From a virus (Duplodnaviria > Caudoviricetes): a stretch of DNA of 64,000 nt. Shown here piece after piece: positions 7,124 through 44,756 of this stretch. The notes under the pieces are model-generated. The model was not told the origin of the DNA. It worked only from the letters and a program-made list of their open reading frames with translations, and made no database searches. Position 1 is the first letter of the stretch; each line of letters opens with the position of its first letter. Position numbers and translations under genes: made by a program. The DNA lies in the IMG/VR virus record IMGVR_UViG_3300037067_024509, positions 1 to 64,000 of that record. One strand, 5' to 3'.

Positions 7124-8173
7124 ATGACCAAAGTATTAATTACTGCTGATTGGCATTTCGGTCATCCAGAAAGATTGGATGATTTGAAATGGGCTTTTTT
7201 AAAGGTTATTGATTATTGTAGTGATAATAATATTAGTAAGATATTTATGCTTGGTGATTTGACTCATAATCGTGAATACTTAACACATGATGTTAGTAAT
7301 GTTATTATTGAATTATTTAATGAAATGAATTCTAGAAATATTGAGATGATATTGTTTCCAGGTAATCATGATATGTTTAATAGATTTAATTGGGATATTA
7401 CTTCATTAAAACCATTTAGCAATGTTGTTAATATTATTAATGATGTGTCTAATTTTGTTTATGGTGGTAGAAAATTTTGGTGTGTTCCATTTATTGAATC
7501 TGAAAAGGTTTATATGAAGGTTATTGATACTATTAGCAAGATGGCATCTAGTAATGATGTATTATTAACTCATATTGGCATTTCTGAAGCTACTTATAAT
7601 GTTTGTTTTTTGATTCAGAATTGGAGTATTGTTAATTTTGATAGTACTGTTTTTTCAAGAGTTTATGCTGGTCATTTTCATTGTCATCAGCAGGTTGGTA
7701 AGGCTTGGTATCCTGGTAGTCCTATAGCTTTTAGATTTGATGAAGGATTAGTTGATCATGGTTTTATTGTTTATGATATTGAAAATAATGATCATTCATT
7801 TATTAATATTAATGATATTGTTAGTGAATCAGATAGTATTCCTCCTGATTTTATTACATCTGATGATGTTGATTTGATTATTAATAATGTTAAAGGTAAT
7901 AATGTTAAAATTTTACTTAAGGATGGGCAAGATGAAGCTGAAATTAAGAAGAGATTGAGAGATGCTGGAGCTTTAAAAATTGTTACTGTAAAGCCAAAAG
8001 AAAAGGTTTTAAAATTTAATAAAGGTGAGATGCTTAAGGGTGGTAAAGATATTTTTGAATCTTGGATTAATTATGATAATCCAGACGGTCTTGATAAACA
8101 AATTTTGTTATCTCTTGAGAAAGATATTAGATCACAAACCAGATTAGAGGTTGAAGACCATGATATCGATTGA
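7124..8173 (+). CDS. Mre11/SbcD/gp47-like recombination nuclease
   Basis: TADWH, LGDL, PGNHD, LTH, AGHFH metallophosphoesterase motifs; adjacent to the Rad50-like ATPase. Confidence 0.92.
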   Translation: MTKVLITADWHFGHPERLDDLKWAFLKVIDYCSDNNISKIFMLGDLTHNREYLTHDVSNVIIELFNEMNSRNIEMILFPGNHDMFNRFNWDITSLKPFSNVVNIINDVSNFVYGGRKFWCVPFIESEKVYMKVIDTISKMASSNDVLLTHIGISEATYNVCFLIQNWSIVNFDSTVFSRVYAGHFHCHQQVGKAWYPGSPIAFRFDEGLVDHGFIVYDIENNDHSFININDIVSESDSIPPDFITSDDVDLIINNVKGNNVKILLKDGQDEAEIKKRLRDAGALKIVTVKPKEKVLKFNKGEMLKGGKDIFESWINYDNPDGLDKQILLSLEKDIRSQTRLEVEDHDID

Positions 8174-17815: not shown

Positions 17816-19039
17816 ATGTTTGATACCAATTTTATTTTTAAAAAAGGAAAATTAACAATATTGGGGGACGGAACTTTCGGATCGAGTGGCAAGGCCGCCA
17901 TTGCATCATTTATTTGTGAACATGCAGACTATGATTTTGCATGTAACTCGTTTTCTGCTCAGGCTGGTCATTGGTCAAGATTAGATAATGGAAAATCATA
18001 TTTTTATCAAACTTTTAATAGTTGTGCTTATCAAAATAAATATCAAAGACTTTTGATTGGTCCAGATGCAGCAATTGAATTATCGGCTCTTAAGAGAGAA
18101 ATAGAAGAAAACAATATTCCAATTAATAAAATTGGAATACATCCACTGGCCACTATTATTCAAGAAAAAGATATGGCTTATGAGCGTGGAGAAGTTGATT
18201 TTGAAGGTAATATGTTTAATAAATTAGAAGATGGTACGAAAAAACACGGCAGCACTTGTCATGGTACAGGCCCGGCAAGAGTTAGAAAAATGTTAAGGAG
18301 AAAGGATACTTTATATGCTAAAGATGTTCCAGATTTGAAAGACATGATATGTGATGTTTCAAATGAAATAATTTCAAGATTGGATGCTGGTCAAACAGGA
18401 TTACTTGAAATAGCTCAAGGATTTCCACTTAGTTTAAATTATAGATTTCATCCTGCATGTACTAATAGAAACGTCACAGTATCAGCGGCTCTAGATGGTA
18501 TGTTTATTCCACCGATTTATGCTGGTAATATAATTCTTAACTATAGAACATTTCCTATTAGAATAAGTAGTTATAAATATATTGGTGATAATGGTAAATT
18601 TTTGACATGGGCAGAAGTTGAAGAATATAAAATTGCAGGAAAAAAATATGAAATATATAAAGGAGATTCTGGTGGTTGGTATAATGACCAAACTGAGGTT
18701 GATTGGGATTATATAACTAAAATAAGTGAATCGAATACCAAAATAATGGAATTAACTAGTGTTACAAAATTGCCAAGACGTGTAGCCACTTTTTCAAAAG
18801 AATGTTTAGAAGATTCCATAAAATTTAACAGGACAGGTCACGATATTTATTTATCAATAAATTTTATGAATTATGTTGATAGTAAAATTAGCGGTATTCG
18901 TGGAAATGGATACAATAAACTTACTGATAAATCGAAAGAATGGTTAAAAGAAAATGTTGATGAAATAGCAAATAAATATAATGCTAAAGTTATGTTTATT
19001 GGAACTGGAGCAAAAACAGACGACAAAATAATATTATAA
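17816..19039 (+). CDS. purZ: PurZ-type adenylosuccinate synthetase homologue (N6-succino-2-amino-dAMP synthase candidate)
   Basis: P-loop FGSSGK (PurA GDEGK Asp replaced by Ser, as in PurZ GSTGK); AGH; GST..G; EIAQGFPLSL; CTNR; RTFPIR; SGGWYNDQ.E..W; ELTSVTKLPRRV.TFS; INFMNY (PurZ-type, not the PurA TKLD). RBS aggaga. Confidence 0.85.
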   Translation: MFDTNFIFKKGKLTILGDGTFGSSGKAAIASFICEHADYDFACNSFSAQAGHWSRLDNGKSYFYQTFNSCAYQNKYQRLLIGPDAAIELSALKREIEENNIPINKIGIHPLATIIQEKDMAYERGEVDFEGNMFNKLEDGTKKHGSTCHGTGPARVRKMLRRKDTLYAKDVPDLKDMICDVSNEIISRLDAGQTGLLEIAQGFPLSLNYRFHPACTNRNVTVSAALDGMFIPPIYAGNIILNYRTFPIRISSYKYIGDNGKFLTWAEVEEYKIAGKKYEIYKGDSGGWYNDQTEVDWDYITKISESNTKIMELTSVTKLPRRVATFSKECLEDSIKFNRTGHDIYLSINFMNYVDSKISGIRGNGYNKLTDKSKEWLKENVDEIANKYNAKVMFIGTGAKTDDKIIL

Positions 19040-19558: not shown

Positions 19559-22500
19559 ATGGCTATAGAATGGGATGATATTGTAAAGTATGCGAAGCGT
19601 GAGGCTGATAAGCTTGGACCTGAATATACTAAACGATTAGAATTTGAAATAAATGAGATTGAAAAGCAAGCCGCTAGTGAATATTATATCCAACTTTTGA
19701 ATGATAAAAAGAAATACGACACTAATAAAAATGGATTAGTACTGCCATTTATATTAAAAATAACAAATATAGACCCTATAAAAAATAATGTCGGTCATAT
19801 TATCACATATGAAGCAGATTATCCCGATATTGACTCAGATTTCCTCCCTCATGCTCGTGATTCAGTAAAGAAATTTATATCTGATAAGTTTGGTGCTGAT
19901 AAAGTTTGTACAGTTGGTAATTGGAATACCCTTGGCGTCAGGCAAGCTGTGCTCGATTCAGCACGAATTCTTGGTGCTGACCTTGATAAAGCTAATGCTG
20001 TTACAAAGAATTTATCTAAAGATTTTGAAGAACTTATTGATCTTGATGACATGCTTTCTGCTAGTGATGAATTTAGATCTTATTATGAATCTAATAGAGA
20101 AGTAGTTGAATTAGCTCTTCGTCTTGTTGGTAAGATTAAGAGCCAGGGTCAACATGCTGGTGGTGTTATTATTAGCAGCGTTCATTTAGCTGACACTATT
20201 CCGATGAGTATTATTAAAGGTAAGCAGGTTAGTCAATGGACTGAAGGTATGGCGTCAGTTCAGCTTAGTAAATTTGGATTAGTTAAATTCGATATTCTTG
20301 GTCTAAATACTTTAGCCTATAATACTTATACAGAAGAATTGGTTAAGAAGAATAGAGGAGTTATTATTGATTGGAGTGAAAGTGATCCTACTTGTGAAGA
20401 ACCTTACTTTGGGTATGAAACTTATCCTGATGGTACTAAAATTAAAATTTTAATGAATGATCCATTAGCTATCAAATTAGCTGACAATGTTAAAACTGAT
20501 GCTGTGTTCCAATTTGACACTCCAGTTGCTAAAGGTGTATTATCTAATGGAGTTAAAACATTTTTTGATCTTGTGACATATACGGCAATGGCCCGGCCAG
20601 GTCCAATTTCGATGATACCAGAGCTTGTTGCTCGTAGAGATGACCCTAAGCAAAGCTGGAAGAAAAAAGAAGATCCAAGAATTGTTGAAATGTTAGAGAA
20701 AACTTTTGGCATAGTTTGTGTACATGAAGATACAATGATATCTATGTCTAATGGGTTGGAAACTAGGATTAAAGATATTAATGTTGGTGACAAAGTTTTT
20801 TCTGTTTCTGAAAATGATAGAAAAATTAATTCAAATAAAGTTATTAACAAGATAAAAACAAAATTTGGTTATGGTTTAAGATTGACTTTAAATAATGGTA
20901 TTGATGCCATCTTTACTCCTGACCATAAAGTTTTAACTCATGATGGATATAAAGAAGTTCAACTACTTAATGAAAATGATGTAATTGCAATAGCTTATAA
21001 TTTTAAATGGAAAGGCAAATCTAGAAATATTGCTGAATGGCTTGGTAATAATAATGATGTTTCTTATTTTATTGGATTGTTAGTTGGTGATGGATGTTTA
21101 ACATCTTCTAATTATTGTATTGCAGTAGGATCTAAAAAAGATGCTTTGATAGTTAAAAAATTTATTGATAAAAATCTTAAATTAAATACTAATTTATTTT
21201 TTCACACTAGGTGTTGGTATATTTCATTTAATTCAAATTATAAAGATGAGTTTAAAGTTGATGAAAATGATTTTTTGAATCATAAAGACAATTATAATTG
21301 GTGGAATTTTGTATTGAACAAATATACGATTGATGAAATTCACAATAATTTAAAAAAATATGGTTTTAAAAGAAGTATATGGATGATTTTTCATAGAATG
21401 AATAAATTTAATATTAAGAAAAAATTAATAAATAGATCTAAAACTAAGTTGCATAGTTGGATTGAAGAGATTGGTTTAAACTGTAATTTTTATAATAAGA
21501 GAGTGCCTGAGTGTATAATGACTGGAAATGAATCTATAAGAGCATATTTTTTGGCTGGTTTGATTGATTCAGATGGATGTATATCTAAATCAAAAAGAAA
21601 TATTACATGTGTAAATATTAGTTCAATTAATAAATTATTATTAAATGATATTAGAAAAATATTAAATGGTTTTGGAATGCATTATAAATTATATAAACAC
21701 AGAATATATATATGGAGCACAGAGAAATTAAAAAAATTAATTAATGATAAGTTGGTCATAAAAACAATGGGAAATGGTAAATTATTGAATGGTAAATATT
21801 TATGTGAATATCCAATATCTGCAATGAATAGTATTGGATATCAAAAATTGATGAGCTTTGGTATACCAAAAGCAACAATAATTGGAAACAGAAATTCGGA
21901 TAGGAAATTTATAATTAATAAAACTATAAATAAACTCGGTATAAATTTAGGTGATCTGCAATTTTATTCTGTTAGATCTATTGATAAAGTCGAAAATTGC
22001 CAATTTTATGATATAACTGTTGAAAATGATCATTCTATGATATGTAATGGCATGGTTGCGCATAATTGTTACCAAGAGCAGTTAACGGCTGTTTGGATGA
22101 AATTCGGAGGATTAACAGCACCAGAAGCAGAAAAGGCTAGAAAGGCAGTTGCTAAGAAGAAGCGTGATGAAGTTTTGAAGTTGGGTCCAAAGATTATTTC
22201 TGGTATGATTAAAAATGGCTTTAAGGATGACCCATCTAAACCTGATGAAGAAGGTAAGTTTCCTCAATCTGATCCGTATTCTGCTCAGGGATATTGGTCA
22301 AGAATGGTTGATTTCGGAAGATATTGCTTTAATCTTAGTCATGCGATGGCCTACGGAATTGTTGCTTATCGTGCTTTGTGGTTGAAGGCTCATTATCCTC
22401 CGGAGTTTTGGGCGTCTATTTTGACTTATTGTAAGCTTGAGTCTAAACCTAAATATGTTAGTGTTGCTAAGGCTGAGGGTGTTAATTTTAGGCCATTGAG

Positions 22501-23374
22501 AGTTGGTATGTTTTCTGATAGATTTACTGTTGATAAGGACTTGAATGTTTATCCTAGTTTGTCTATGGTTAAGGGTATAGGTGATAGTGCTGCTAAGAAT
22601 TATAGTGTTGATGGTGGTTCTTGTACAAGTTTTGATGATTTTTTGGTGAAGTATGGTAAGAGTAAGGCTGTTATGGAGAGGTTGATTAAGCTTGGTGCTT
22701 TTGATGATATAGAGTCTAATAGGAATGGACTATGGAATTGGTATTTGTATAAGTATTGTTCAAAATCTGAAGATGTTGATGCTGTTAGAAAGAATATTAA
22801 TGATAAGATTATTGGTGTTGAATGGCCTGCTGATAAAATTAAAATTGAGCGTGAACGTCAGTTAGATGAATTTAAAAAATTATTTCCAAAAAAGAAGCCA
22901 CTTAAAAGGATTACTGAATGGGAGCCTAAAATTGGTTATAAATATGATTATCCTACTATAAAAGAGGTTATTAATTTATTTGATGATTATACTTTAAAAG
23001 AGAAGTTAATGTTTGAGAAGGAATATCTTGGTGTTTATTGGACTGATCCTATGCAGTTGTTTGAATATGATAGGGAATATTGTTTTGAGAATGCCAAGGT
23101 TGAAGAGGATTATTATGTTGATGGTATTGTTGAAGGATTTAATGATGCTAGAACTAAGAATGGTAAGAGGTTTAGGAATTATAATGTTAGTGATGGTGTA
23201 GAGACTAATGCTATTAAAATTTGGGAAGATTCTATTAAATATCAGGATGAAGAGGTTTATAAACCTGGATGTGGTGTAAGGGTTCCAGTTAAATGGTCTG
23301 AAAAATATCATTCATTTAGTCTACAACGTAATTGCAGTATAGTATCATTAAGGAATAAACGTGTTACATCCTAG
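19559..23374 (+). CDS. dnaE: DNA polymerase III alpha (family C, DnaE-like), lacking the N-terminal PHP domain, intein-containing
   Basis: YPDIDSDF, GQHAGGV, GLVKFDILGL, VFQF, RPGP, (intein) CYQEQL, CFNLSHA, KGIG HhH, C-terminal OB fold. Begins at the Y..RL..E..I segment that follows PHP in full-length DnaE. Confidence 0.93.
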   Translation: MAIEWDDIVKYAKREADKLGPEYTKRLEFEINEIEKQAASEYYIQLLNDKKKYDTNKNGLVLPFILKITNIDPIKNNVGHIITYEADYPDIDSDFLPHARDSVKKFISDKFGADKVCTVGNWNTLGVRQAVLDSARILGADLDKANAVTKNLSKDFEELIDLDDMLSASDEFRSYYESNREVVELALRLVGKIKSQGQHAGGVIISSVHLADTIPMSIIKGKQVSQWTEGMASVQLSKFGLVKFDILGLNTLAYNTYTEELVKKNRGVIIDWSESDPTCEEPYFGYETYPDGTKIKILMNDPLAIKLADNVKTDAVFQFDTPVAKGVLSNGVKTFFDLVTYTAMARPGPISMIPELVARRDDPKQSWKKKEDPRIVEMLEKTFGIVCVHEDTMISMSNGLETRIKDINVGDKVFSVSENDRKINSNKVINKIKTKFGYGLRLTLNNGIDAIFTPDHKVLTHDGYKEVQLLNENDVIAIAYNFKWKGKSRNIAEWLGNNNDVSYFIGLLVGDGCLTSSNYCIAVGSKKDALIVKKFIDKNLKLNTNLFFHTRCWYISFNSNYKDEFKVDENDFLNHKDNYNWWNFVLNKYTIDEIHNNLKKYGFKRSIWMIFHRMNKFNIKKKLINRSKTKLHSWIEEIGLNCNFYNKRVPECIMTGNESIRAYFLAGLIDSDGCISKSKRNITCVNISSINKLLLNDIRKILNGFGMHYKLYKHRIYIWSTEKLKKLINDKLVIKTMGNGKLLNGKYLCEYPISAMNSIGYQKLMSFGIPKATIIGNRNSDRKFIINKTINKLGINLGDLQFYSVRSIDKVENCQFYDITVENDHSMICNGMVAHNCYQEQLTAVWMKFGGLTAPEAEKARKAVAKKKRDEVLKLGPKIISGMIKNGFKDDPSKPDEEGKFPQSDPYSAQGYWSRMVDFGRYCFNLSHAMAYGIVAYRALWLKAHYPPEFWASILTYCKLESKPKYVSVAKAEGVNFRPLRVGMFSDRFTVDKDLNVYPSLSMVKGIGDSAAKNYSVDGGSCTSFDDFLVKYGKSKAVMERLIKLGAFDDIESNRNGLWNWYLYKYCSKSEDVDAVRKNINDKIIGVEWPADKIKIERERQLDEFKKLFPKKKPLKRITEWEPKIGYKYDYPTIKEVINLFDDYTLKEKLMFEKEYLGVYWTDPMQLFEYDREYCFENAKVEEDYYVDGIVEGFNDARTKNGKRFRNYNVSDGVETNAIKIWEDSIKYQDEEVYKPGCGVRVPVKWSEKYHSFSLQRNCSIVSLRNKRVTS
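20717..22066 (+). mobile_element. 450-aa intein with LAGLIDADG homing endonuclease in DnaE
   Basis: N-junction FGIV|CVHEDTMI; block B TPDHKV; LAGLIDADG motifs IGLLVGDG and LAGLIDSDG; C-junction FYDITVENDHS...VAHN|CYQEQL. Splicing restores FGIVCYQEQ. Confidence 0.95.
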
Positions 23375-28133: not shown

Positions 28134-29153
28134 ATGGCTAAAGAAAAAAGAGAAATAATAACTGATCTTGATAAAGTAATGGATTTAATTAATAAAGAAG
28201 ATAATGGTGGCGAACTTATTAGATATGGATCTGATTCAACACATGTTGTTGAGACAACTACTACTGGATCTATTGCAATTGATAAAGCTATAGGTGTTGG
28301 TGGATTACCAAAGGGTAGGATAATTGAAATATTTGGTCCAGAAGCTTCTGGTAAGACTACTATAGCATTAGGTGCTATAGCTGCTGCTCAAAAAGCAGGA
28401 CAAAAAGTTGCATTTTTAGATATGGAACATGCTTTAGATCCTAAATTAGCTAAAGGTGTTGGAGTTGATTGGGATTCATTATTATTTTCGCAACCAAATT
28501 ATGGTGAACAATGTCTTAATATAGCTGTGAAACTTGCTGAAACTGGAAAAGTTGGGATAGTAGTAATAGACAGTACTGCTGCACTTGTTCCAAAAGCCGA
28601 ATTAGATGGTGAAATTGAAGATAATGTTATAGGTGCAGTTGCTAGAATGATGTCAAAAGGTCTTCGTATGCTTGTTCCAGTTTGTCAAAGTAAAGGTACT
28701 ACTGTAATATTTATTAACCAGATTCGTGAAAAAATTGGAGTTTTGTATGGCAATAATGAGGTTACGCCAGGAGGTCGTGCATTAAAATTTGCTGCTTCTA
28801 TTAGGCTTGATGTTAGACGTAAGGAACCAATCATGGATGGCAAGAGAATTATTGGTAATCATCTTAAGGTTAAAGTTGTTAAGAATAAGATAGCAGAACC
28901 TTTTCATGTTGCTGAAGTAGATCTTTACTTTGGTAAGGGTGTTGATAATCTTAAAGATGTTATTAATGCTGCTGTTGATCTTAAAATTATTAATAAAAAA
29001 GGATCAAGTTTTTATGAATATGGCGAAATGAAAGTTAATGGTATGGATAAGCTAATGTTATTACTAAATGAAAATATTGATAAACGTAAAGAACTTGAAG
29101 ATTCTGTACGTTCAAGAATGGGTGAATTATCAGTTGAAATAGAATCTGAATGA
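28134..29153 (+). CDS. recA: RecA recombinase (bacterial type)
   Basis: GGLPKGRIIEIFGPEASGKTT, DMEHALDP, SQPNYGEQ, IDSTAALVPKAEL, FINQIREKIG, TPGGRALKFAASIRL, VVKNKIA. Confidence 0.97.
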   Translation: MAKEKREIITDLDKVMDLINKEDNGGELIRYGSDSTHVVETTTTGSIAIDKAIGVGGLPKGRIIEIFGPEASGKTTIALGAIAAAQKAGQKVAFLDMEHALDPKLAKGVGVDWDSLLFSQPNYGEQCLNIAVKLAETGKVGIVVIDSTAALVPKAELDGEIEDNVIGAVARMMSKGLRMLVPVCQSKGTTVIFINQIREKIGVLYGNNEVTPGGRALKFAASIRLDVRRKEPIMDGKRIIGNHLKVKVVKNKIAEPFHVAEVDLYFGKGVDNLKDVINAAVDLKIINKKGSSFYEYGEMKVNGMDKLMLLLNENIDKRKELEDSVRSRMGELSVEIESE

Positions 29154-29168
29154 TTCAAATTTATGTAA

Positions 29169-29900
29169 ATGACCACTAATTCTACTATAATATCTATACC
29201 GTTAGCTAAATTTGGTATTAGTGAGATAGTTTATATTAGAGAGAGTGCTTTAAATGGATATTTGGAACCACAAAAAGTTGCTTTAGCATATTTCGATCCT
29301 GATATTGGTAAGTATTGGTATTCGTTTAAGTTTAAGAAAAATCCACCAGTAACACAAACTGTTGGTGATATTATTGATTTGAAGACTAAAGGGCAGATAC
29401 AAGTATTAGAAGATGATTTGTGTTCATATCAGGAAGCGTTAATGTTAAAGCGTAATTTTTTGAATTCTGAATTAGCAAAAACTATAACTCAAATAGATAG
29501 TATATCTGGTGGTCCAGAGATAGATATAATAGGCCATGGAATAGATATAACTAATAATGATTTAACTCCTAATTATAATGATTATACTAATTTTGGAGAA
29601 CAAACAGTTGACATTAATCCTGATCATGGACTAATGAGGACATTTGAAATTAAAAACATTGGAAATTTTGATTTAAACTTGCTTGGTAATCCACCAGTAT
29701 TATTGTCTGGAGATAATGATTTCCAGGTTATATCACAGCCTCTTTTGAATGTTATATCTTCTAATTCTTCACAATTTTTTAAAATAGCATTCAAGCCACT
29801 TAGTAAAGGTAGAAAAGTAGCATCAGTTATAATTCATTCCAATGACAAGGAAAATAGCATTTTTGTGTTTACGATAGAAGGGCAGGGAATAGAATCGTAG
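29169..29900 (+). CDS. Protein with N-terminal coiled coil and C-terminal ASH/choice-of-anchor-D Ig-like domain
   Basis: PEIDI.G.GIDI.N.D.TP...D.T.FG...RTFEIKNIGN..L.L...F.V..QP...I......F.I.F.P...G...A...I.SND.....F.F.I.G.G. Confidence 0.7.
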   Translation: MTTNSTIISIPLAKFGISEIVYIRESALNGYLEPQKVALAYFDPDIGKYWYSFKFKKNPPVTQTVGDIIDLKTKGQIQVLEDDLCSYQEALMLKRNFLNSELAKTITQIDSISGGPEIDIIGHGIDITNNDLTPNYNDYTNFGEQTVDINPDHGLMRTFEIKNIGNFDLNLLGNPPVLLSGDNDFQVISQPLLNVISSNSSQFFKIAFKPLSKGRKVASVIIHSNDKENSIFVFTIEGQGIES

Positions 29901-29912
29901 TATTTTATAATT

Positions 29913-31220
29913 ATGGAAGAATTTAGTAAGTTTGAAGAAGAAAACATAATTTTGCTGGCTTTGGATAGTCCGGAGTTTTTTCATAAAATTGCTTCGTTTA
30001 TGAAACAGGAATACTTTGCTTCCGATGAAGCGCAATTTATTATGAATATTATTTCTGACTATTTTAAAAAGCATGATGTAGTTCCAACTAAGGAAATGGT
30101 TAAAAATTTAGTTTATAAAGATTTATCAGTTGATGATCCAGTTTCTAAACCAATTATAGATATTTTGGATCGTAATATAGATCCAAGAGATTCTCCATTT
30201 ATTAGAGATCATATTATAAGTTGGGCTAAACGTAAACAAATATCTATGTTGTATGATGATGAGGTAATGGAAAAGATTAAAGCTGGCGATTTTGAAACTA
30301 TTGAAGAAATATTTAATGATGCAGCTAAGATAAATGATGTAATTATTAAACCATTTAATTTTTTTAAAGATGTTGATAAGTTATTTGAAGTGAATGAAAG
30401 AGATAGTTTTACTACTGGATTTCCAAGAGTTGATAAAGAAATTCATGATAAAGGACCATGGCGTAGAGAGGTATTATCGTTTATAGCTCCTACAGGTGTT
30501 GGTAAGAGTTTGATATTAGCTAATACATCAATTTCTAATTTATTAATGGGTAGAAACGTATTGCATATTTCGCTTGAAAATGATGAGATAGTTACTGGAA
30601 ATAGATATTTAGGTGCATTTACAAATTCGCCAATAAAGACTAGGTTTGATAAAAAAGAAATATTAAAAGAGCAGTTAAAGAAAATTAAATCATCAACTAA
30701 TGCTGAATTATATATTGTATTCTTCCCAACAGATACGATAACTGTTGATACCATAGAACAAACTATTAAAGATTTAAAATATCAATGTAATTTTATACCT
30801 GATGTATTATGTCTTGATTATTTGGAATGTTTATTGTCTAGGGTAAATTCTAAAAATAAAGATGATTATACTAGACAAAAGGCAGTGGCCACCGAATTTA
30901 GAACTTTAACTGCTAAAACTAATACATTTGGTGCTACTGCAAGTCAGACTAATAGGAGTTCTGTTAAAGGAGACGATGGTCCAATTAATTTAGATAAAAT
31001 GTCAGAATCATATGGTAAATCAATGCCAACTGAATATATTATATCTTTAAATCAAACACAGCAAGAATATGCTGGTAATAATCAAGATGGTCAAGCACAA
31101 TCTCATATTGGTCATTTAAGATTATTTATGGCTAAAAATAGAAATGGTAGAAAAGGGTTCACAGTTAATGCATCAGTTAATTATGCTACAATGAAGGCAA
31201 TTGAAGATACTGCGGCATAA
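29913..31220 (+). CDS. Replicative helicase, DnaB/T4 gp41-like
   Basis: TTGF..VD, APTGVGKS, LHISLE, CLDYLE, ASQTNR, KNRNG. Confidence 0.92.
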   Translation: MEEFSKFEEENIILLALDSPEFFHKIASFMKQEYFASDEAQFIMNIISDYFKKHDVVPTKEMVKNLVYKDLSVDDPVSKPIIDILDRNIDPRDSPFIRDHIISWAKRKQISMLYDDEVMEKIKAGDFETIEEIFNDAAKINDVIIKPFNFFKDVDKLFEVNERDSFTTGFPRVDKEIHDKGPWRREVLSFIAPTGVGKSLILANTSISNLLMGRNVLHISLENDEIVTGNRYLGAFTNSPIKTRFDKKEILKEQLKKIKSSTNAELYIVFFPTDTITVDTIEQTIKDLKYQCNFIPDVLCLDYLECLLSRVNSKNKDDYTRQKAVATEFRTLTAKTNTFGATASQTNRSSVKGDDGPINLDKMSESYGKSMPTEYIISLNQTQQEYAGNNQDGQAQSHIGHLRLFMAKNRNGRKGFTVNASVNYATMKAIEDTAA

Positions 31221-31526: not shown

Positions 31527-32192
31527 ATGCCAATATATCAATATTCATGTAATAACTGCACAAATAAAAAAGATAAGAAAATTGGGTTATATAATTCTGA
31601 TTCTATAAATTTAAAATTTGGTTATCATCCTGATACCAATGAATTTTTATTTTTTGTTGAATGTCATATGAAGGATAAACCAAAAAATCCAAAATGTCCA
31701 AACTGTGGATCTAATGATACTAATGTTAGTTATATTGATTTAGATCAGCAGTGCTATGTTAGGGGAAATGGATTGGTTAAAGATAAAGCTGGTGCTAGAA
31801 GAGATATGAATAGACATAAATTGAAGCATGAAGATCCGTATTCTTCTATGAGAGTTAGTGGCGAAAAAGATTATCTTATAGATAAGTTTAGGCGTGGTGG
31901 TATTGATATGGGTGCAAAAAGTAATACAGATTCTATAAGAGAAGCTCAAGAAAAAAGATTAGTTGAACATAATAAAGAAATTGATTTATTGAGTGATTCT
32001 GAAAAGAAGGTTATAGTTCATATTTTTAAGAATGGTTCTGCTACTACTTCTGAATTATCAAAATATTCTGATGATATCAATAAAGTGTTGACTAATATTA
32101 ATAAACATTATGTTTATTATAATGCTAATAAAGAAATATGGTTGCCATTAGCTGGTGGTAATAGAATATATGAAACTATAGTAGGTATTTGA
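31527..32192 (+). CDS. FmdB-type Zn-ribbon protein with C-terminal winged helix
   Basis: MPIYQYSCNNC...CPNCGS; LSDSEKKVIVHIFKNGSATTSELS. Confidence 0.65.
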   Translation: MPIYQYSCNNCTNKKDKKIGLYNSDSINLKFGYHPDTNEFLFFVECHMKDKPKNPKCPNCGSNDTNVSYIDLDQQCYVRGNGLVKDKAGARRDMNRHKLKHEDPYSSMRVSGEKDYLIDKFRRGGIDMGAKSNTDSIREAQEKRLVEHNKEIDLLSDSEKKVIVHIFKNGSATTSELSKYSDDINKVLTNINKHYVYYNANKEIWLPLAGGNRIYETIVGI

Positions 32193-32198
32193 CATGCA

Positions 32199-33311
32199 AT
32201 GATAGTGGCAGTTTTTTCATGGGATAATAATAATAGGCCAATAAATTATTCTTTATATAAGGATAAAGTATTAATTAGAAGAAATGATCTTTGGAAAATT
32301 GGTTCTAAAAAGAAAATTATAGAAATAATTAAAGAACAATCTATTTTAAATAAGATTCTATCATCTGTAAATGAATTTGTGATTGTTAATTATAAAAAAT
32401 ATTTAGATTATTTTAAATGTGGATTTAATGATGTTTATGATTATCCTGGGGCTGTTGAACATGATAAACATGATGAGTTTGTTAATTCTAATTGGGATGA
32501 ATTTGGTAAGAATTGGCAAAAGTTAAGAGGTAATGCTGCTAAAGTTTATTATAAATTAGAAAAATGTGGTGTTATGCTTGAGTATAAAAATATGTTTCCG
32601 GTTTATGACATGAATGTTTTTAGTGGTAGATCTAGTACTACTGGATTTAATATTCAAGGTTGTAATAAAGAATTTAATATTAAACATGTTAATTCTTCAA
32701 ATAATATTTTTGTTCATTTCGATTGGATGGCTGCTGATATTAGAATTGCTGCTATTTTATCTGGTGATAAAGATTTAATTGATAGTTATTTAAAATCTGA
32801 TCCATATTCACATATTGTGAATATTTTAGATGGATCTGTTGATAGAGATCAATGCAAGAGCGAATTTATGCAGGCTATATATGGTCTTAATCCTGATCAT
32901 GAGATTCTGGCTGTATTTCCAACTTGTAAAAAGTGGATTTCTGATATGGTAATTGAACTTAATAATAATGGATTTGTTAGATCAATTCTTGGCAGAAAAT
33001 ACTTAACTGATGGTACAATTAAAGGTAATAGGAGGGCGTTTAATAGTATTATGCAGGGTAGTGTAGCTCATGCTATGAATAATGTGATATCAAAAATTGA
33101 TAATAAATTTGAAAATATTATTTTAACTGAGCAGCATGACTCTTTGACTGCGTGTGTTAATGAATTCAATTTTCAAGATACTATTAAATATATATCTAAT
33201 ATAATGCTGAAACCATTTGAAGGAATTTTGGATGGCAATATTACTATGCCATTAAGAATTCATGTTGGGAAACATTGGCGTGTATATAAACAAATTAAGG
33301 AAGTAAGATGA
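32199..33311 (+). CDS. Minimal family-A DNA polymerase (palm plus fingers; no recognisable thumb or exonuclease)
   Basis: FSGRSSTTGFNIQG (TGRLSS..PNLQ), motif A FDWMAADIRI, motif B RDQCKSEFMQAIYG, RSILGR, NSIMQGSVA, motif C QHDS. Confidence 0.85.
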   Translation: MIVAVFSWDNNNRPINYSLYKDKVLIRRNDLWKIGSKKKIIEIIKEQSILNKILSSVNEFVIVNYKKYLDYFKCGFNDVYDYPGAVEHDKHDEFVNSNWDEFGKNWQKLRGNAAKVYYKLEKCGVMLEYKNMFPVYDMNVFSGRSSTTGFNIQGCNKEFNIKHVNSSNNIFVHFDWMAADIRIAAILSGDKDLIDSYLKSDPYSHIVNILDGSVDRDQCKSEFMQAIYGLNPDHEILAVFPTCKKWISDMVIELNNNGFVRSILGRKYLTDGTIKGNRRAFNSIMQGSVAHAMNNVISKIDNKFENIILTEQHDSLTACVNEFNFQDTIKYISNIMLKPFEGILDGNITMPLRIHVGKHWRVYKQIKEVR

Positions 33312-33345: not shown

Positions 33346-33810
33346 ATGAACTGGTGGGAAACTGAAGTACCTGAAGATATCGCTGATGTTTTAATTGTTT
33401 TGAATGTTAAAATAAATAATAAAAATGTTACTAGGGACTGGAGAAAGGATTGCCATATAGACTATGATAAACTTGAGGATGATTTAACCTACATGCCAAG
33501 TATTTATTCGTTTTGGACTTCTGTTTTAGCTGAGGCTAGGAAGAATCTTAGAATTAATGAAATGTCTATGGATATTAGAAAGTCAAGGGTTTTAAGAGAG
33601 ATTAAGCCGCCTGAAGGTGTTAAATTAACTGTTTCTGATAAAGAATCAATTGTTAAATTAGATCCTGAGTTGTGTCAATTAACTGTTACTAATATTCATC
33701 TTGAAAATATTGTTCAAAAATTATTTGGTATAGTTGATTCATTAAAGATGAAATCTGAAAGTCTTAGGTCTTTAGCTGGTTTTAAACGTGCAGAACTTTC
33801 TAATAGTTAA
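33346..33810 (+). CDS. UvsY-like recombination mediator
   Basis: KDCHIDYDKLEDDL...IYSFW... helical pattern like T4 UvsY (KDVFIDSTKLQYE...LYSKW); located next to the SSB gene. Confidence 0.6.
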   Translation: MNWWETEVPEDIADVLIVLNVKINNKNVTRDWRKDCHIDYDKLEDDLTYMPSIYSFWTSVLAEARKNLRINEMSMDIRKSRVLREIKPPEGVKLTVSDKESIVKLDPELCQLTVTNIHLENIVQKLFGIVDSLKMKSESLRSLAGFKRAELSNS

Positions 33811-33834: not shown

Positions 33835-33860
33835 GCAGAAAATGGCATAATGCCATCTGC
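33835..33860 (+). promoter_or_regulatory. Stem-loop in the SSB gene leader
   Basis: gcag-aaa-atggca-taa-tgccat-ctgc (4+6 bp stem with a 3-nt bulge), about 22 nt upstream of ATG 33883 and its aaggaa RBS. Confidence 0.45.
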
Positions 33861-33882
33861 AAGCAAACAAGGAATAACTCCC

Positions 33883-34926
33883 ATGGCAATTAGTCAGGCT
33901 GACAAGCAGAAGCTCTTAGAGCGGATGCGTGCAAAGCAGGCTGCTCAAACTGGATTTAAGGATCCATCTGAGTGGCGACCGCCCAAGATGAAGAAAGATG
34001 AAGAGAGGAAGTTTAGGGTTATATTCCTTCCCCCTCTTAATGAAGGTGACAAGTGTGTTGGTGGCACAGCGTCATCGACATTGGATCTGTGGTATCTTCC
34101 GCATGGTCATCATTTTATCAATAAAAAGCGTTATGAATGTCCTAGAGTTCATATTGAAAAGGGTGAATGCCCACTTTGTTCAACTGGCTTTGATTTGATG
34201 CGTGAGGTTGATGATAAAGAAGTTAGATCTAAACTTGCCAAGGAATGGCTTGCTCAGTCAAATTTTGCTGTGAACGTTTATTTTGAAAATCACAAAGATA
34301 ATCCTGAAGATTTGCGTGGTAAAGTATTGTGGTGGTCAATTCCAGTGTCAGTATTTAATAAATGCGATAAGGCATTTAAGAGTGACAGTGCAGGTGATGA
34401 TGATAATCCGCAAGCTTTTGGATTATTCTTTGACCCTGAAAATGCATTTCCGTTTATTGTCAATGTGACTGAGAAGAGTGGGTATAATAATTATGAGAGT
34501 TCTGTATTTACGTCTAAGTCGCGTCCTATTGCTCAGTCAGATGAGGAAATTCAGGATATTCTTGATAGAAGGCATGATTTGTATAAGAAGTTTGAGGGTC
34601 GTGATATCAAGGCTCTTGAAAAATTGCTTAATGATAAGCTTGCTGGTGGTTCAGAACAGCCTAAGAGTAATGAAGATGGCGATGATGGATATATCGCTAA
34701 GCCTGAAACTGGATCTTCAAAATCTGAAGTGAAGACCGAGTCTAAGGTTGAGTCTAAGGCTAAGGTTGAAGAATCTAAGCCAAAAACTGAATCAGCTAAA
34801 ACTGAAACAAAACCTAAGGCAGAAGATAAACCTAAAGCTGAAACAAAGCCGAAGGTAGAAGAACCTGATAATCCTGAAGATGATCCTGAATTAAAGGCAT
34901 TGTTAGCACAGCTTGCTGATAAGTAA
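33883..34926 (+). CDS. T4 gp32-like single-stranded DNA-binding protein
   Basis: Start re-called to MAISQ. W.P......FRVIFLP, HGHHF, CPR..EKGECPLC, N.AVNV, W; long Lys/Glu/Pro-rich tail ending in DDPELKALLAQLADK. Confidence 0.82.
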   Translation: MAISQADKQKLLERMRAKQAAQTGFKDPSEWRPPKMKKDEERKFRVIFLPPLNEGDKCVGGTASSTLDLWYLPHGHHFINKKRYECPRVHIEKGECPLCSTGFDLMREVDDKEVRSKLAKEWLAQSNFAVNVYFENHKDNPEDLRGKVLWWSIPVSVFNKCDKAFKSDSAGDDDNPQAFGLFFDPENAFPFIVNVTEKSGYNNYESSVFTSKSRPIAQSDEEIQDILDRRHDLYKKFEGRDIKALEKLLNDKLAGGSEQPKSNEDGDDGYIAKPETGSSKSEVKTESKVESKAKVEESKPKTESAKTETKPKAEDKPKAETKPKVEEPDNPEDDPELKALLAQLADK

Positions 34927-34946: not shown

Positions 34947-34983
34947 ATTGACGCCCATGAGACAATATCTCATGGGCGTCAAT
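34947..34983 (+). terminator. Perfect 16-bp hairpin after the SSB gene; probable intrinsic terminator overlapping the next start codon
   Basis: attgacgcccatgaga-caata-tctcatgggcgtcaat followed by gtatttt; the right arm includes the A and T of ATG 34982. Confidence 0.75.
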
Positions 34984-35833
34984 GTATTTTAAAATAATGG
35001 ACATTTTAATAGATGGTAAAAATGTTGTTTATAGATCATTATTTGCGGCTTTAGATAAAATAACTGGTAAAGTTAAAGTTGATCCAATAATAATAGCATT
35101 ACGACAATTTGTAAAATGGAGACGTATTTATAAGCCTGATAATTGGTGTATTTTTTGGGATGTTCCAAAAAATAATTTATGGCGTAAAAAATTATATCCG
35201 CCATATAAAGAAGGTAGAGACAAATCATTTATTGATAAATCAACATTAAGTGAATTAGTTAGCAGATTTAATACCATATTTATAAATATACTTCATAATA
35301 TGAAAATGACTCAATTTATTAAAAGTGAAAATGAAGCAGATGATTTAATATATGCATATATTAAAGCTTATAATGATAAAGAATTATTGATTGTATCAAG
35401 TGATGGTGATATGGTACAAGTTTTATTAAAATGTAATAATGTTAAATTACATGATCCTAAAAATAAAGATATATTATATGTTCCAAAACCAGAATATGAT
35501 CCTGTAACAGTTAAATGTTTATCTGGTGATACAAGTGACAACATTGATGGATATAGGTTGGTTGGCGATATAACTGCTAAAAAAATAATGCGTGAAAATA
35601 GAGTTGATGCTTTTTTATCTGAAAAAGGCAGAGAAATGTTTGATTTGAATAAAAAATTAGTTGATTTTGATATGAATGATGATTTGAATAGTAATATTGA
35701 GTATATTAAATCAGTTAAGAAAAATGACAAGTTTGATATCAAAGCTATTAACAATATAATTGATAAATATAGTCTTACTGAATTAAAACAATTAATGTCT
35801 GATTTAATAATACCGTTTAAATATAATCCTTGA
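34982..35833 (+). CDS. 5'-3' exonuclease / flap endonuclease (T4 RNase H, Pol I 5'-nuclease family)
   Basis: LIDGKN, FWD, YKEGR, EADDLI, SSDGDM, GDTSDNIDG. Confidence 0.93.
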   Translation: MYFKIMDILIDGKNVVYRSLFAALDKITGKVKVDPIIIALRQFVKWRRIYKPDNWCIFWDVPKNNLWRKKLYPPYKEGRDKSFIDKSTLSELVSRFNTIFINILHNMKMTQFIKSENEADDLIYAYIKAYNDKELLIVSSDGDMVQVLLKCNNVKLHDPKNKDILYVPKPEYDPVTVKCLSGDTSDNIDGYRLVGDITAKKIMRENRVDAFLSEKGREMFDLNKKLVDFDMNDDLNSNIEYIKSVKKNDKFDIKAINNIIDKYSLTELKQLMSDLIIPFKYNP

Positions 35834-38130: not shown

Positions 38131-38657
38131 ATAAATGTGTAATACCTGATTTTGTTGATTATCCTACATTTTTTGATGTAAAGGAATATTCTAAATTATT
38201 CAATAATTTATATTCATATATTATTGTACCATATAGTTTAGATGATGGATACTCATTATATATTGGATTTAGGAATGGATATGTTTTTGTTAGGTTGTCT
38301 GATTTTAAATCAAATGAATATAAAATATCTGATTCAAAATATAAACCAATTTTAAAGTATGTTAGTAAACTGGTTAATTTAATGAAAACTGCTAGGATAG
38401 TTGAATCTTGTTATTATTTTTCGAATAAATCTAATCCAGTGTTAGTAGATGTTATGATATCAGCTAATAAATTCCTTGGTCCAGGAATGATAAGAGATAT
38501 ATATAAGAAGATTCTTCCGACACAAGAAATAGTTGAAATAGCTACTGTATCATCTGATAACCTTTCAAAATATATGGGAAAGTTTATAAAGCCTAGTAGA
38601 TTTAAATATTTAATTGAAGATAAAGAATTTAGACCACTATATGGGATAGTAAAATGA
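38127..38657 (+). CDS. Hypothetical protein
   Basis: 176-aa ORF with ATGA coupling on both sides. Confidence 0.6.
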   Translation: MNKCVIPDFVDYPTFFDVKEYSKLFNNLYSYIIVPYSLDDGYSLYIGFRNGYVFVRLSDFKSNEYKISDSKYKPILKYVSKLVNLMKTARIVESCYYFSNKSNPVLVDVMISANKFLGPGMIRDIYKKILPTQEIVEIATVSSDNLSKYMGKFIKPSRFKYLIEDKEFRPLYGIVK

Positions 38658-43114: not shown

Positions 43115-43726
43115 GTGGACAGATTTGTTCTAAAAGTAGCTTTAGAATATAAAAATGTCATTGGGTCATTTGGTGGAACATTTAAATTTCCGAAATCTAA
43201 TGATATTTCTGAAACATATCCATATAGAACATTTAATGCTTTTATAAATAAATGCAGATCATTTTCACTGAATAATGATCAAATATTAGAGGTTATACGT
43301 ATTGTTGTTAGATATATGCATAAACATAAATTATCAAGAAGAGGTATAGGAATATTTTCAAGTCCTGATATTGTTGATATTTGTGTTGATGAGTTAAAAC
43401 ATAATGTTATTGTTTCAAATGATATTTTGAAAACATTTATTGAATGCATTAAAATATTAAATTATTATGATGATAAAATTGAATATTTAGTTACTAGGGT
43501 CAATGGTGGATTACCTAATTTAGTTATTCTTAGAAATAAAAGTATTTTTCCAGATCATTTTATATGTTTATCTAAATCTTGTGTTTCTGCATATAATATT
43601 ATAGATATTTCTGATAGAAATATGTTATTGTCTCCAAAAGAATATATTATCTTGAAAATGAAAATTATTAATATGATAGGGTTTGAGAATATAAAAAATG
43701 TACTAGGTATTGAATTTAATGCTTAA
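43115..43726 (+). CDS. Hypothetical protein
   Basis: 203-aa ORF (GTG start) upstream of the primase. Confidence 0.55.
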   Translation: MDRFVLKVALEYKNVIGSFGGTFKFPKSNDISETYPYRTFNAFINKCRSFSLNNDQILEVIRIVVRYMHKHKLSRRGIGIFSSPDIVDICVDELKHNVIVSNDILKTFIECIKILNYYDDKIEYLVTRVNGGLPNLVILRNKSIFPDHFICLSKSCVSAYNIIDISDRNMLLSPKEYIILKMKIINMIGFENIKNVLGIEFNA

Positions 43727-44756
43727 ATTCAATCGTAATAAATATTTAGCTATTAAGAATCAACATAATGGTTATATTAAGCCGACTAATGATCAAATAG
43801 AGTCTTGGATTTCAAAACATTTTGATTATAAAACTGCAAATGATGATCAATTAAGAATATGTAATCCTGATGGTGACACTGAATATAGATTGTGGATATC
43901 AAGATCAAATGCTGCTGTTCATGATTTTAGACCTAATCATCAACAATTTGATGGATCGTTTTTAAAATTTGTTTCAAAATATAAAAATGTTACTTTTAGT
44001 GAAGCGATTAAAGAAGTATGTGGTAATTCGCCAATTATTTCAAGATATACAAACTCTAAAGAGAATGATAACATTCAAAACGATGATCCAATAAAACTTC
44101 CTAACGGATCTGTTTTTATTAAAAATTGTAATGGTAAAGCTAGGGATATGTGTATGTCATATCTTACTAAAGTACGTGGATTATCAGAAGAAATTATTTT
44201 AAAAGCTAAAGTTAATATTCTTGGTACTGGTATGGTATTTCCATACATACAATATGACATGTTAGTATTTTGGCAAATGAGATCACTGATATCAAAAGTT
44301 TTTCAATTTCCTGATGAATCAATTACAAATAAAAAAGCAGGTGATTTTTTATATGGATTTGATGATATAGAACCATGTTCTGAAGTAATAGTTGTTGAAT
44401 CTATATTTAATAGTTTGAGTGTTAATCAAAATTGTGCTGCTACTGGTGGTGCGTCATTAAAAGATGGTCAATTAAAATTATTAAAATCTTTAAATCCAAA
44501 AACAATAATTTTAGCACCTGATAGAGATGAAGCTGGTGTAAAATCAATACAAAAAGATTTTTGTGCTCTAAATAAAATGAGATCTGGAGATTTGTTTAAA
44601 GAAATATATTATTGTCTTCCTCCAAAAGAAATAGTTCAATATGGTAAAAAGGACTGGAATGATATGTTATTACTTAAATATAATGTGTATAAATTTATTA
44701 ATGAAAATAAAAAGTTGGTAACTAATAGACTATTATTTGATGGAATTAAGATTTAG
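43710..44756 (+). CDS. DNA primase (DnaG/gp61-like TOPRIM) with degenerate Zn-binding domain
   Basis: F.EA+..+ helix, YLTKVRGL, VFPY, WQMR, LYGFD, VVESIFNSL, ATGG, PDRDEAG, KDWND. Confidence 0.88.
   Translation: MNLMLKFNRNKYLAIKNQHNGYIKPTNDQIESWISKHFDYKTANDDQLRICNPDGDTEYRLWISRSNAAVHDFRPNHQQFDGSFLKFVSKYKNVTFSEAIKEVCGNSPIISRYTNSKENDNIQNDDPIKLPNGSVFIKNCNGKARDMCMSYLTKVRGLSEEIILKAKVNILGTGMVFPYIQYDMLVFWQMRSLISKVFQFPDESITNKKAGDFLYGFDDIEPCSEVIVVESIFNSLSVNQNCAATGGASLKDGQLKLLKSLNPKTIILAPDRDEAGVKSIQKDFCALNKMRSGDLFKEIYYCLPPKEIVQYGKKDWNDMLLLKYNVYKFINENKKLVTNRLLFDGIKI

Follow-up and report, generated by a model that had tools for sequence, protein, structure and literature searches.

In a right-hand polymerase, the thumb is regarded as the part by which the duplex is held and processivity is set. 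Truncation of the tip of the thumb in Pol I leaves the enzyme active, with processivity and fidelity lowered, according to work cited in PMC10061031. In phages, Yutin et al. (2024) described the polymerase divPolA1, which has a truncated thumb and an inactive exonuclease together with a conserved palm, and which is encoded beside a regular polymerase and near replication genes (PMC11348598); GroEL is a reported context feature of the regular polymerases in divPolA1 phages. A reclassification of PolA enzymes in 2023 gave 19 clusters, none of them thumbless. Another family-A enzyme of phages is DpoZ, the selectivity of which has been attributed to exonuclease backtracking (PMC8599892).

Here we describe a mini family-A DNA polymerase (mini-PolA), thumbless and exonuclease-dead as judged from its PF00476 match, its AF2 model, its alignment with KlenTaq and its homologues. 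It is encoded at 32199..33311 on the plus strand, as are all features given below, of a window of 64,000 nucleotides (positions 1 to 64,000 of the IMG/VR virus record IMGVR_UViG_3300037067_024509).

Catalytic motifs and predicted structure of mini-PolA

The open reading frame gave a stop-free translation of 370 amino acids, with a PF00476 match confined to residues 238–361 (51 bits, cut-off 34.3). Using the family alignment in hhalign, residues 132–361 could be aligned with residues 655–925 of E. coli Pol I at a probability of 97%, and the pairs thereby obtained (mini-PolA = Pol I) were R144=R668, D175=D705, D180=E710, R216=R754, K220=K758, M224=F762, Y228=Y766, Q286=Q849 and H313/D314=H881/D882. 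Motif A (FVHFDWMAADIRIAAILSG, 32706..32762) thus carries the catalytic D175, with D180 in place of the steric-gate Glu E710, and motif B, corresponding to the O-helix (RDQCKSEFMQAIYG, 32844..32885), carries R216, K220, M224 at the F762 site and Y228 at the Y766 site. Motif 6 (N282...Q286 GSVAH, 33042..33071) contains the minor-groove-sensing residues equivalent to N845 and Q849, while motif C (TEQHDSL, 33126..33146) holds H313 and the catalytic D314. The reading of motifs A, B and C made in a first-pass annotation of this DNA, including the Glu-to-Asp exchange in motif A and the Met four residues after the motif-B Lys, was correct by this alignment.

The AF2 model of mini-PolA (pLDDT 96.1, pTM 0.93) superposed with its residues 1–365 on residues 304–832 of KlenTaq, having a Z score of 25.7 over 333 residues and an rmsd of 4.6 Å (VIA-align), and a Klenow-like palm and fingers fold was present, as also found with Foldseek (E 4.6e-15). 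In this comparison with a Klenow-type structure, of the kind that the first-pass annotation had proposed, ~195 KlenTaq residues within the aligned span had no counterpart in the model. With the profile, the catalytic residues and the palm and fingers fold all in place, mini-PolA is a genuine family-A polymerase of the PF00476 superfamily.

Absence of the thumb and of an exonuclease site

The site of the thumb deletion (32556..32630) is made up of LEKCG (residues 120–124), a linker of 17 residues and SGR (residues 142–144, motif 2, with R144 matching R668). Between G124 and S142 there are 17 residues, compared with ~120 in E. coli Pol I, and the whole thumb is therefore gone; counted from Gly to Gly, the spacing is 19 in mini-PolA versus 123 in Pol I (G544 to G667). 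The linker was assigned by DSSP in the AF2 model as short strands only, in the form of a β-hairpin, and the thumb subdomain, with helices H–I from the first palm strand to motif 2, is lacking. This gap had been recognized earlier and is real, but the count of about 12 residues then given was slightly off. All of the 231 aligned homologues had a linker of 18–20 residues.

The N-terminal domain (residues 1–104, 32199..32510) has a reduced 3′–5′ exonuclease-like fold, as indicated by the KlenTaq alignment starting at residue 304 and by column composition. No conserved Asp or Glu was found at the Exo I, II or III positions in the column composition of the homologue alignment, which bears out the description of the enzyme as exonuclease-less, and the N-terminal 104 residues are a dead exonuclease-like domain. 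We also considered whether the N-terminal part, for which some 120 residues had been named at first, could serve as a substitute thumb. We rejected this idea, as the superposition of the entire model on KlenTaq puts the domain where the exonuclease is.

Conservation of the mini-PolA family

Searches gave 161 cluster representatives of homologues at E<1e-30 and, with the linker length shared by all 231 aligned sequences, the architecture cannot be put down to chance. In cellular genomes the family was essentially absent, a single phage-like contig from a MAG being found over 185,579 species. When mini-PolA and a relative at 42% identity were used in tblastn on 50,697 phage records, ordinary PolA genes alone were matched, and these weakly. 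In the alignment of 231 homologues, having identities down to ~28%, the aspartates D175 and D314, which the first-pass annotation had held to be intact, the motif-2 Arg R144 and the motif-B Lys K220 were found in 231/231 sequences. Near-invariant were also D180 and R216 (229/231 each), Q286 (226/231) and H313 (219/231).

Signs of decay in homologues had been named beforehand as an observation that would speak against a functional enzyme, and none were seen. With a constant linker, and with D175, D314, R144 and K220 unchanged throughout, a pseudogene or gene decay could be rejected, and the catalytic core is under strong selection. The same residues bear on the reading of mini-PolA as a polymerase derivative that no longer catalyses and has a structural or regulatory role instead, for which the loss of the thumb, of the exonuclease site and of part of the fingers could be cited, together with the altered residues of the pocket. 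We regard that reading as extremely improbable, since the presence of these four residues in every homologue, with the motif-B Arg and the motif-6 Gln nearly as constant, would not be expected at such low identities without catalysis.

The pocket itself differs from that of Pol I. Position 224, at the F762 site, is mostly Leu among the 231 homologues and position 228, at the Y766 site, is either Tyr (119) or Asn (112), with Y766 of Pol I being a residue that matters for fidelity. Judging from these sequence differences, with Asp at the steric gate, Leu at the F762 site and Asn at the Y766 site, the selectivity for sugar and base may differ from that of Pol I. The segment following motif B is moreover shorter than in Pol I according to hhalign, and since this segment of Pol I is implicated in strand separation, classical nick translation by mini-PolA is not assured.

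A conserved replication and recombination module

The genomic surroundings of mini-PolA were compared over 80 IMG/VR loci carrying its gene. In these 80 viral contigs it belongs to a fixed module of RecA, DnaB, a Zn-ribbon protein, mini-PolA, a UvsY-like protein, a gp32-like SSB and FEN. The module starts in the window with a RecA/UvsX-like recombinase (28134..29153; PF00154, E 2.7e-102), present in 62/80 loci, which is followed by a DnaB-like replicative helicase (29913..31220; phrog_19, E 2e-58) found in 72/80. Directly downstream of mini-PolA is a UvsY-like recombination mediator (33346..33810; phrog_231, E 2e-7), in that position in 78/80 loci, and then a gp32-like single-strand DNA binding protein (33850..34926; phrog_224 and phrog_1192), seen at +1.4 to +3 kb in 79/80. 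The FEN or 5′–3′ exonuclease, a homologue of the 5′-nuclease of Pol I (34982..35833; PF02739, E 1.3e-20), was found at +2.4 to +4.1 kb in 67/80 loci. Its gene lies 1.67 kb downstream of mini-PolA in the window, with no 5′-nuclease domain fused to the polymerase, in agreement with the separate nuclease some 1.7 kb away that had been noted from the sequence before. A strong terminator-like hairpin is located between the SSB and FEN genes, and FEN therefore need not be co-transcribed with mini-PolA.

The gene immediately upstream encodes a Zn-ribbon protein of 221 residues with a conserved core (31527..32192), ending 6 nt before the start of the polymerase and being a candidate partner. In most of the 80 loci the upstream neighbour begins with MPxYxYxCxxC and is separated from the polymerase gene by −4 to about +50 nt. 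The AF2 model of the protein (pLDDT 85) showed a four-Cys Zn ribbon and a helical core, in which no OB fold was seen, and the conserved core gave no fold match. A winged helix at the C-terminus, weakly matching MarR-type regulators, occurs only in close relatives. No Pfam or PHROG family was matched besides the ribbon itself, and an Atlas search returned one unnamed viral cluster with a score of 0.82, where a hit counts as more than a lead from 0.9 upwards.

The tight linkage and translational coupling of the Zn-ribbon gene suggest a two-subunit enzyme with mini-PolA, and the properties of such an enzyme would therefore not be predictable from the polymerase alone. One could extend this to a two-subunit polymerase for lagging-strand synthesis or recombination, with the Zn-ribbon protein providing the grip in trans, in a new clade of PurZ-type (2-aminoadenine) huge phages. 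With Asp at its steric gate relaxing the selectivity for sugar, such an enzyme might for instance start from or elongate RNA/DNA junctions, or it might instead remake primer-derived, A-containing patches as Z-DNA. We find this extended proposal decidedly unlikely.

Replicase, primase and PurZ-like genes of the phages

The complete relatives having mini-PolA are phages of 341–408 kb. In the window, a Pol III alpha (family C) with a LAGLIDADG intein is encoded at 19559..23374 (PF07733, PF17657, PF14890) and is the likely replicase. PF07733 was found in 19/21 long related contigs, including matches in all four complete genomes. Mini-PolA was the sole PF00476 match in the four complete genomes and one partial genome, in which no PolB was found either. 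GroEL was not found in the 82.7 kb record to which the window belongs.

This complement bears on whether mini-PolA could be a core polymerase of the replisome, acting for example on one strand and obtaining its grip and processivity in trans from the Zn-ribbon protein, the SSB, the helicase or a clamp, with the Pol III alpha-like gene having another or a shared role. The replication-module context is far better conserved than is usual for an accessory enzyme, and the Pol III alpha of the window has no PHP domain, with the PF07733 matches of relatives split over two ORFs. A similar context was taken by Yutin et al. to place divPolA1 in replication, the context of the regular polymerase being variable (PMC11348598). 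We nonetheless consider a core role unlikely, with Pol III alpha so widely retained, no beta-clamp domain detected in the genomes of the complete relatives and the Tyr equivalent to Y766 lost in half of the family. We also know of no replicative polymerase lacking both a thumb and proofreading.

A DnaG-type primase is encoded in the window at 43710..44756 (phrog_47, E 1e-22), and was present in 5/5 related genomes examined, of which four are complete. Mini-PolA might otherwise be seen as a PolA-type primase that makes or initiates primers, like the CCPol-MP and PolA-SSB pairs of mobile elements, with the lost thumb, last helix included, leaving space for the 5′ triphosphate of the initiating nucleotide and with the template held by the adjacent Zn-ribbon protein or the SSB. 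CCPol-MP indeed belongs to family A, its thumb being shortened and its exonuclease domain partial, and it primes with dNTPs only when bound to its small partner (PMC7581432, PMC10061031). Rice has proposed (PMC10061031) that in Pol I the initiating triphosphate is kept out by the final helix of the thumb, a helix missing in mini-PolA. Asp, shorter than the Glu of Pol I, occupies the steric gate, and the gene lies ~1 kb downstream of DnaB, right behind the translationally coupled Zn-ribbon gene. Since DnaG is conserved in the same genomes, however, priming is already covered, the neighbouring protein is a Zn-ribbon protein with no OB fold seen in its model, unlike an SSB of the MP type, and no sequence affinity to CCPol-type enzymes was seen, the closest solved relatives among the matches listed being bacterial Pol I, Pol theta and Pol nu. 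We hence find a primase function quite unlikely.

The window also encodes a PurZ-like adenylosuccinate synthetase homologue with a GSSGK P-loop (17816..19039; phrog_1211; 29% identity to phiVC8 PurZ, E 9e-34). Its gene adjoins that of Pol III alpha and lies 13 kb from mini-PolA. PurZ-like genes with a Ser-containing P-loop (GSxGK, or GSxAK/GSxSK, in the relatives) were found in 17/21 long mini-PolA contigs, all four complete genomes included. Such co-occurrence with purZ had been named as a check in the first-pass annotation, which had suggested that mini-PolA could be the Z-selective component of a 2-aminoadenine system, swapping A-containing primers or patches for Z. The co-occurrence is there, but it is confined to one phage clade sharing the entire module and is therefore not independent evidence; shared ancestry alone may explain it, and would have led one to expect it. 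Using the phiVC8-like enzyme as the one exemplar of DpoZ, the family HMM scored −0.5 bits on phiVC8 DpoZ as against 51 bits on E. coli Pol I, and DpoZ was absent among the PDB profile matches listed (60 of 64). Mini-PolA also lacks the exonuclease site upon which DpoZ selectivity relies, and the purZ gene has Pol III alpha, not mini-PolA, at its side. In S-2L, Z-DNA is made by a non-selective PrimPol together with removal of dATP (PMC8065100), and the complete genome of Flavobacterium phage immuto, encoding a thumb-truncated PolA, had no PurZ match. The Z-selective role is thus very improbable, and a specific link of mini-PolA to the Z chemistry of the phage is not supported.

Discussion

Our preferred reading, to which we would assign a probability of about 0.5, is that mini-PolA is an active, non-proofreading accessory polymerase of huge (~340–410 kb) phages replicating with Pol III alpha, encoded in a module for recombination and the lagging strand and likely serving in short-patch synthesis. 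The architecture, conservation, synteny and polymerase complement were observed here, and that the enzyme is catalytically active, of low processivity and used in gap filling or recombination is inferred. Because it keeps the metal-binding Asp pair, the Arg and Lys by which the O-helix binds the triphosphate, and the residues sensing the minor groove, it should extend primers, adding nucleotides as a DNA-dependent DNA polymerase. With no thumb gripping the primer–template duplex only a few additions per binding event would be expected, making the enzyme distributive. FEN would then remove RNA primers, upon which mini-PolA could fill the resulting gaps, and it might also, or instead, extend the 3′ ends of recombination intermediates.

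The job of Pol I would in this manner be divided over two genes, and the reading of mini-PolA with FEN as a split Pol I is plausible. Distributive gap filling or primer maturation together with FEN had been put forward from the sequence alone; the lack of a thumb stood, and given that FEN belongs to the same module and that Pol III alpha is the sole other polymerase, such a role is reasonable, with the function as such deduced from this context. By analogy, the pairing of Pol III alpha with mini-PolA plausibly mirrors the bacterial division of labour between Pol III and Pol I.

The concept of a thumb-truncated accessory PolA is already known, having been published in 2024 for divPolA1. In mini-PolA, a natural family-A enzyme conserved over hundreds of lineages, the thumb has been wholly dispensed with while the catalytic residues were kept, raising the question of what the minimal architecture for templated synthesis is and of what use a replisome makes of it. 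At ~370 residues it is also a very small PolA scaffold for enzymology. If it is the true Pol I equivalent of huge phages based on Pol III, the bacterial division between Pol III, Pol I and FEN would have been rebuilt in split form in viruses.

Comparison with known systems

DpoZ, in its phiVC8-like and Wayne-like forms, is likewise a family-A polymerase in phages with a PurZ-like gene, but it is a full-length enzyme that has a thumb and an active exonuclease, its gene adjoins purZ and its preference for Z arises through backtracking (PMC8599892). The CCPol-MP and PolA-SSB primases of mobile elements in Bacillota are similar to mini-PolA in that their family-A polymerase is trimmed, its exonuclease domain being partial and its thumb shortened (PMC7581432, PMC10061031), and in that a helicase and a small partner are encoded beside it. 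The partner of CCPol is an OB-fold SSB, whereas mini-PolA has a Zn-ribbon protein as its neighbour and a gp32-like SSB two genes downstream. CCPol furthermore retains E710 and F762 (PMC7581432), which mini-PolA does not, and the mini-PolA phages have a DnaG primase, with no specific sequence affinity between the two groups.

Mini-PolA resembles divPolA1 in being a second compact family-A polymerase of large phages, in having its thumb truncated, its exonuclease dead and its palm conserved, in being additional to a regular polymerase, here Pol III alpha, and in being set among the genes for SSB, RecA, FEN and DnaB. In sequence the two lineages appear only distantly similar, as compared using the immuto exemplar (LR796625, LR796859, MK892584 and MK892766 being outside of the comparison): identity was 21%, the hhalign probability 65% and the family HMM score 17 bits, as against 51 for E. 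coli Pol I. The linker has 37 residues in immuto versus 19 in mini-PolA, and in pairwise alignments immuto has His at the steric gate and YD in motif C, where mini-PolA has Asp and HD. Published divPolA1 hosts have genomes of 155–190 kb, compared with 341–408 kb for the complete mini-PolA relatives, and the gene order of the module differs.

The large fragment of bacterial Pol I (Klenow, KlenTaq, Bst) was the best match in both sequence and structure. Compared with bacterial Pol I, mini-PolA lacks the thumb (~104 residues), has fingers shorter by ~30 residues and has the 5′-nuclease in a separate gene, with E710 changed to Asp, F762 to Met or Leu, and Y766 not conserved in the family. Motifs 2, A, B, 6 and C could nonetheless all be aligned, and Taq has, as does mini-PolA, an exonuclease-like domain that is inactive.

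Catalytic core, thumb loss and predicted fold

The mini-PolA ORF (32199-33311, + strand, 370 aa) matched Pfam DNA_pol_A within its C-terminal third only (aa 238-361, 51 bits; cut-off 34.3 bits), while profile-profile alignment of the family placed aa 132-361 on residues 655-925 of E. coli Pol I with a probability of 97%. In that alignment R144 of motif 2 (SGR, equivalent to TGR) pairs with Pol I R668, D175 and D180 of motif A with D705 and E710, R216, K220, M224 and Y228 of motif B with R754, K758, F762 and Y766, N282 and Q286 of motif 6 with N845 and Q849, and H313 and D314 of motif C with H881 and D882. These residue pairs therefore showed that the motif assignments of the first-pass annotation were correct. 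The segment following motif B is shorter in mini-PolA than in Pol I.

Nineteen positions separate G124 (LEKCG) from G143 (SGR), compared with 123 between the equivalent landmarks of E. coli Pol I (IERNG to TATGR), and the approximately 104 absent residues constitute the thumb. An AlphaFold2 model built from 53 homologues (pLDDT 96.1, pTM 0.93; Foldseek E 4.6e-15) contained short strands only at the thumb site, and its residues 1-365 superposed on KlenTaq 304-832 over 333 residues (Z 25.7, rmsd 4.6 Å). A single superposition accommodates 333 of the 370 residues, so on the model the N-terminal 104 aa must lie where the 3'-5' exonuclease domain would be and do not supply a thumb; this disposes of the refuting case, set out in the first-pass annotation, of an N-terminal thumb. 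The homologue alignment of this N-terminal domain had no conserved acidic residue at the Exo I, II or III positions, with P14, K66, F72 and D81 as the only near-invariant residues; the domain is a scaffold as in Taq, but smaller.

Conservation of the family

A word-indexed search gave 96 relatives of 203-648 aa, and an exhaustive HMMER search retrieved 161 cluster representatives with E<1e-30, which were 350-450 aa long in almost every case. All 231 aligned sequences had a thumb-site spacing of 18, 19 or 20 residues and invariant D175, D314, R144 and K220, with R216 kept in 229, Q286 in 226 and H313 in 219. Alignment, model and these 231 homologues together confirmed the description of a thumbless, exonuclease-dead family-A polymerase. 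The relatives form a family free of gene decay, and an inert protein is very unlikely, the catalytic residues being invariant. The nucleotide pocket is altered, with Asp at the steric gate (229/231), mostly Leu, or Met in mini-PolA, at the F762 position, and Tyr (119) or Asn (112) at that of Y766.

Among 185,579 prokaryote species genomes a relative was found in one contig only, and the family is therefore viral. That contig, JALNXG010000061.1 (locus L101; 21,231 bp), binned into a Melioribacteraceae MAG, is equal in bp to IMG/VR contig 3300014205_000774 (locus L003) and is either a clue to the host or an artefact of binning.

Gene neighbourhood

Across 80 IMG/VR loci covering 28-70% identity, the order RecA, (Ig-like), DnaB, Zn-ribbon protein, mini-PolA, UvsY-like, gp32-like SSB, FEN was near-invariant, with SSB in 79, UvsY-like in 78, DnaB in 72, FEN in 67 and RecA in 62, missing neighbours falling mostly at contig ends. 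Nearly always directly upstream of the polymerase lies a gene for a small protein with the pattern MPxYxYxCxxC ... CPxC ... YVRGxG..DKxGAxRDMNxHxL..DPY..RxPGExD, which often has a 4-nt overlap with the start of the polymerase gene and otherwise stops some tens of nt short of it; in the window (31527-32192, +) the gap is 6 nt. This Zn-ribbon protein gave no family match and, for its conserved core, no fold match, and its C-terminal winged helix is restricted to close relatives of the window. Between the SSB and FEN genes is a perfect 16-bp hairpin with a T-rich tail (34947-34983 in the window), the strongest terminator-like site of the module.

An Ig-like (HYDIN/VesB-like) protein of 243 aa (29169-29900) is encoded between RecA and DnaB, as in 26 of the 80 loci, an odd site for such a domain. 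Elsewhere (7124-10400), genes for an SbcD/Mre11-like phosphoesterase (PF00149) and, after it, an SMC/Rad50-like protein of 749 aa make up a recombination nuclease pair of the gp46/gp47 type.

Replication enzymes and proposed function

By CheckV estimate, the 82.7-kb record that contains the window is 23% complete. Whole-contig searches detected Pol III alpha in 19 of 21 long relatives, including all four records at least 98% complete by CheckV (341-408 kb). In these four genomes and the closest relative, mini-PolA was the sole PF00476 match, a DnaG-type primase was always present and PolB was not found; no beta-clamp domain was detected in the related genomes searched. The survey thus identifies the window as part of a huge phage whose replicase is of family C and whose one family-A enzyme is mini-PolA.

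The window's Pol III alpha gene (19559-23374) begins at the palm, without a PHP domain, and holds a LAGLIDADG homing intein. In relatives, PF07733 is matched by two different ORFs (profile positions 5-98 and about 100-260), which suggests split or duplicated DnaE genes. Another intein carrying a LAGLIDADG endonuclease, with Pfam matches to Hint, Intein_splicing and LAGLIDADG_3, interrupts a two-domain glycosyltransferase (38654-41548).

With its catalytic core preserved, mini-PolA is expected to add nucleotides in a templated manner. Lack of the thumb predicts weak duplex grip and low processivity; deletion of the Pol I thumb tip alone already lowers processivity, as cited in PMC10061031. Alternatively, the enzyme might be a core polymerase of the replisome that receives its grip in trans, which we consider doubtful. 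Slightly less plausible is a PolA-type primase resembling CCPol-MP (PMC7581432, PMC10061031): the last thumb helix is absent, and a small partner gene and a helicase adjoin mini-PolA, but DnaG primase is conserved in the related genomes and no OB fold was seen in the model of the neighbour protein. We favour, at a probability of roughly one half, a short-patch enzyme sharing the Pol I job with FEN, because mini-PolA is set among recombination and lagging-strand genes, with a separate FEN and a Pol III-type replicase. It would then fill gaps after primer removal and/or extend recombination intermediates. The split Pol I proposed in the first-pass annotation thus fits its context, the role itself being inferred; the altered pocket, the shortened segment after motif B, the Zn-ribbon partner and the SSB-FEN hairpin are caveats to it.

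Relation to 2-aminoadenine (Z)

A PurZ-like gene in the window (17816-19039) shows 29% identity to phiVC8 PurZ, whose Ser-containing P-loop it shares. Such genes occur in 17 of the 21 long relatives, the four complete genomes (341-408 kb) among them, with a GSxGK-type P-loop in all 15 aligned; the four contigs lacking a match are each at most 42% complete. Co-occurrence with mini-PolA is therefore real, yet it is confined to a single clade whose members have everything else in common. As only one paper found in a literature search names both jumbo phage and PurZ, a Z-genome clade of huge phages may be unreported.

The Z-specific role suggested for mini-PolA on the strength of the family-A DpoZ enzymes nevertheless found no support and is very improbable. 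The profile built from mini-PolA homologues scored E. coli Pol I at 51 bits but phiVC8 DpoZ at -0.5 bits, and DpoZ is absent among the 60 of 64 PDB profile matches listed. Exonuclease backtracking, credited with the Z preference of DpoZ (PMC8599892), is impossible here, and purZ neighbours Pol III alpha (0.5 kb away) but lies 13 kb from mini-PolA. The complete genome of Flavobacterium phage immuto has a thumb-truncated PolA and no PurZ match, and S-2L copes with a non-selective polymerase (PMC8065100).

Comparison with known polymerases

The first-pass interpretation was partly supported, and the architecture is striking, its outline being already published. The 2023 PolA reclassification has no cluster of thumbless type. 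In divPolA1 (Yutin et al. 2024, PMC11348598), known from 14 phages of 155-190 kb, the thumb is truncated and the exonuclease inactivated while the palm is conserved; it accompanies a regular PolA, PolB or PolC, and has conserved replication genes downstream. Its exemplar used here, immuto gene 1, has the same kinds of neighbours as mini-PolA (SSB, RecA, FEN, DnaB), but is only 21% identical, scores 17 bits against the family profile, has a 37-residue linker and, as read off alignments, differs in gate and motif C residues. Because the sequence of the mini-PolA lineage resembles bacterial Pol I more closely than this single exemplar, we regard it as a variant of this general kind rather than a proven member of divPolA1.
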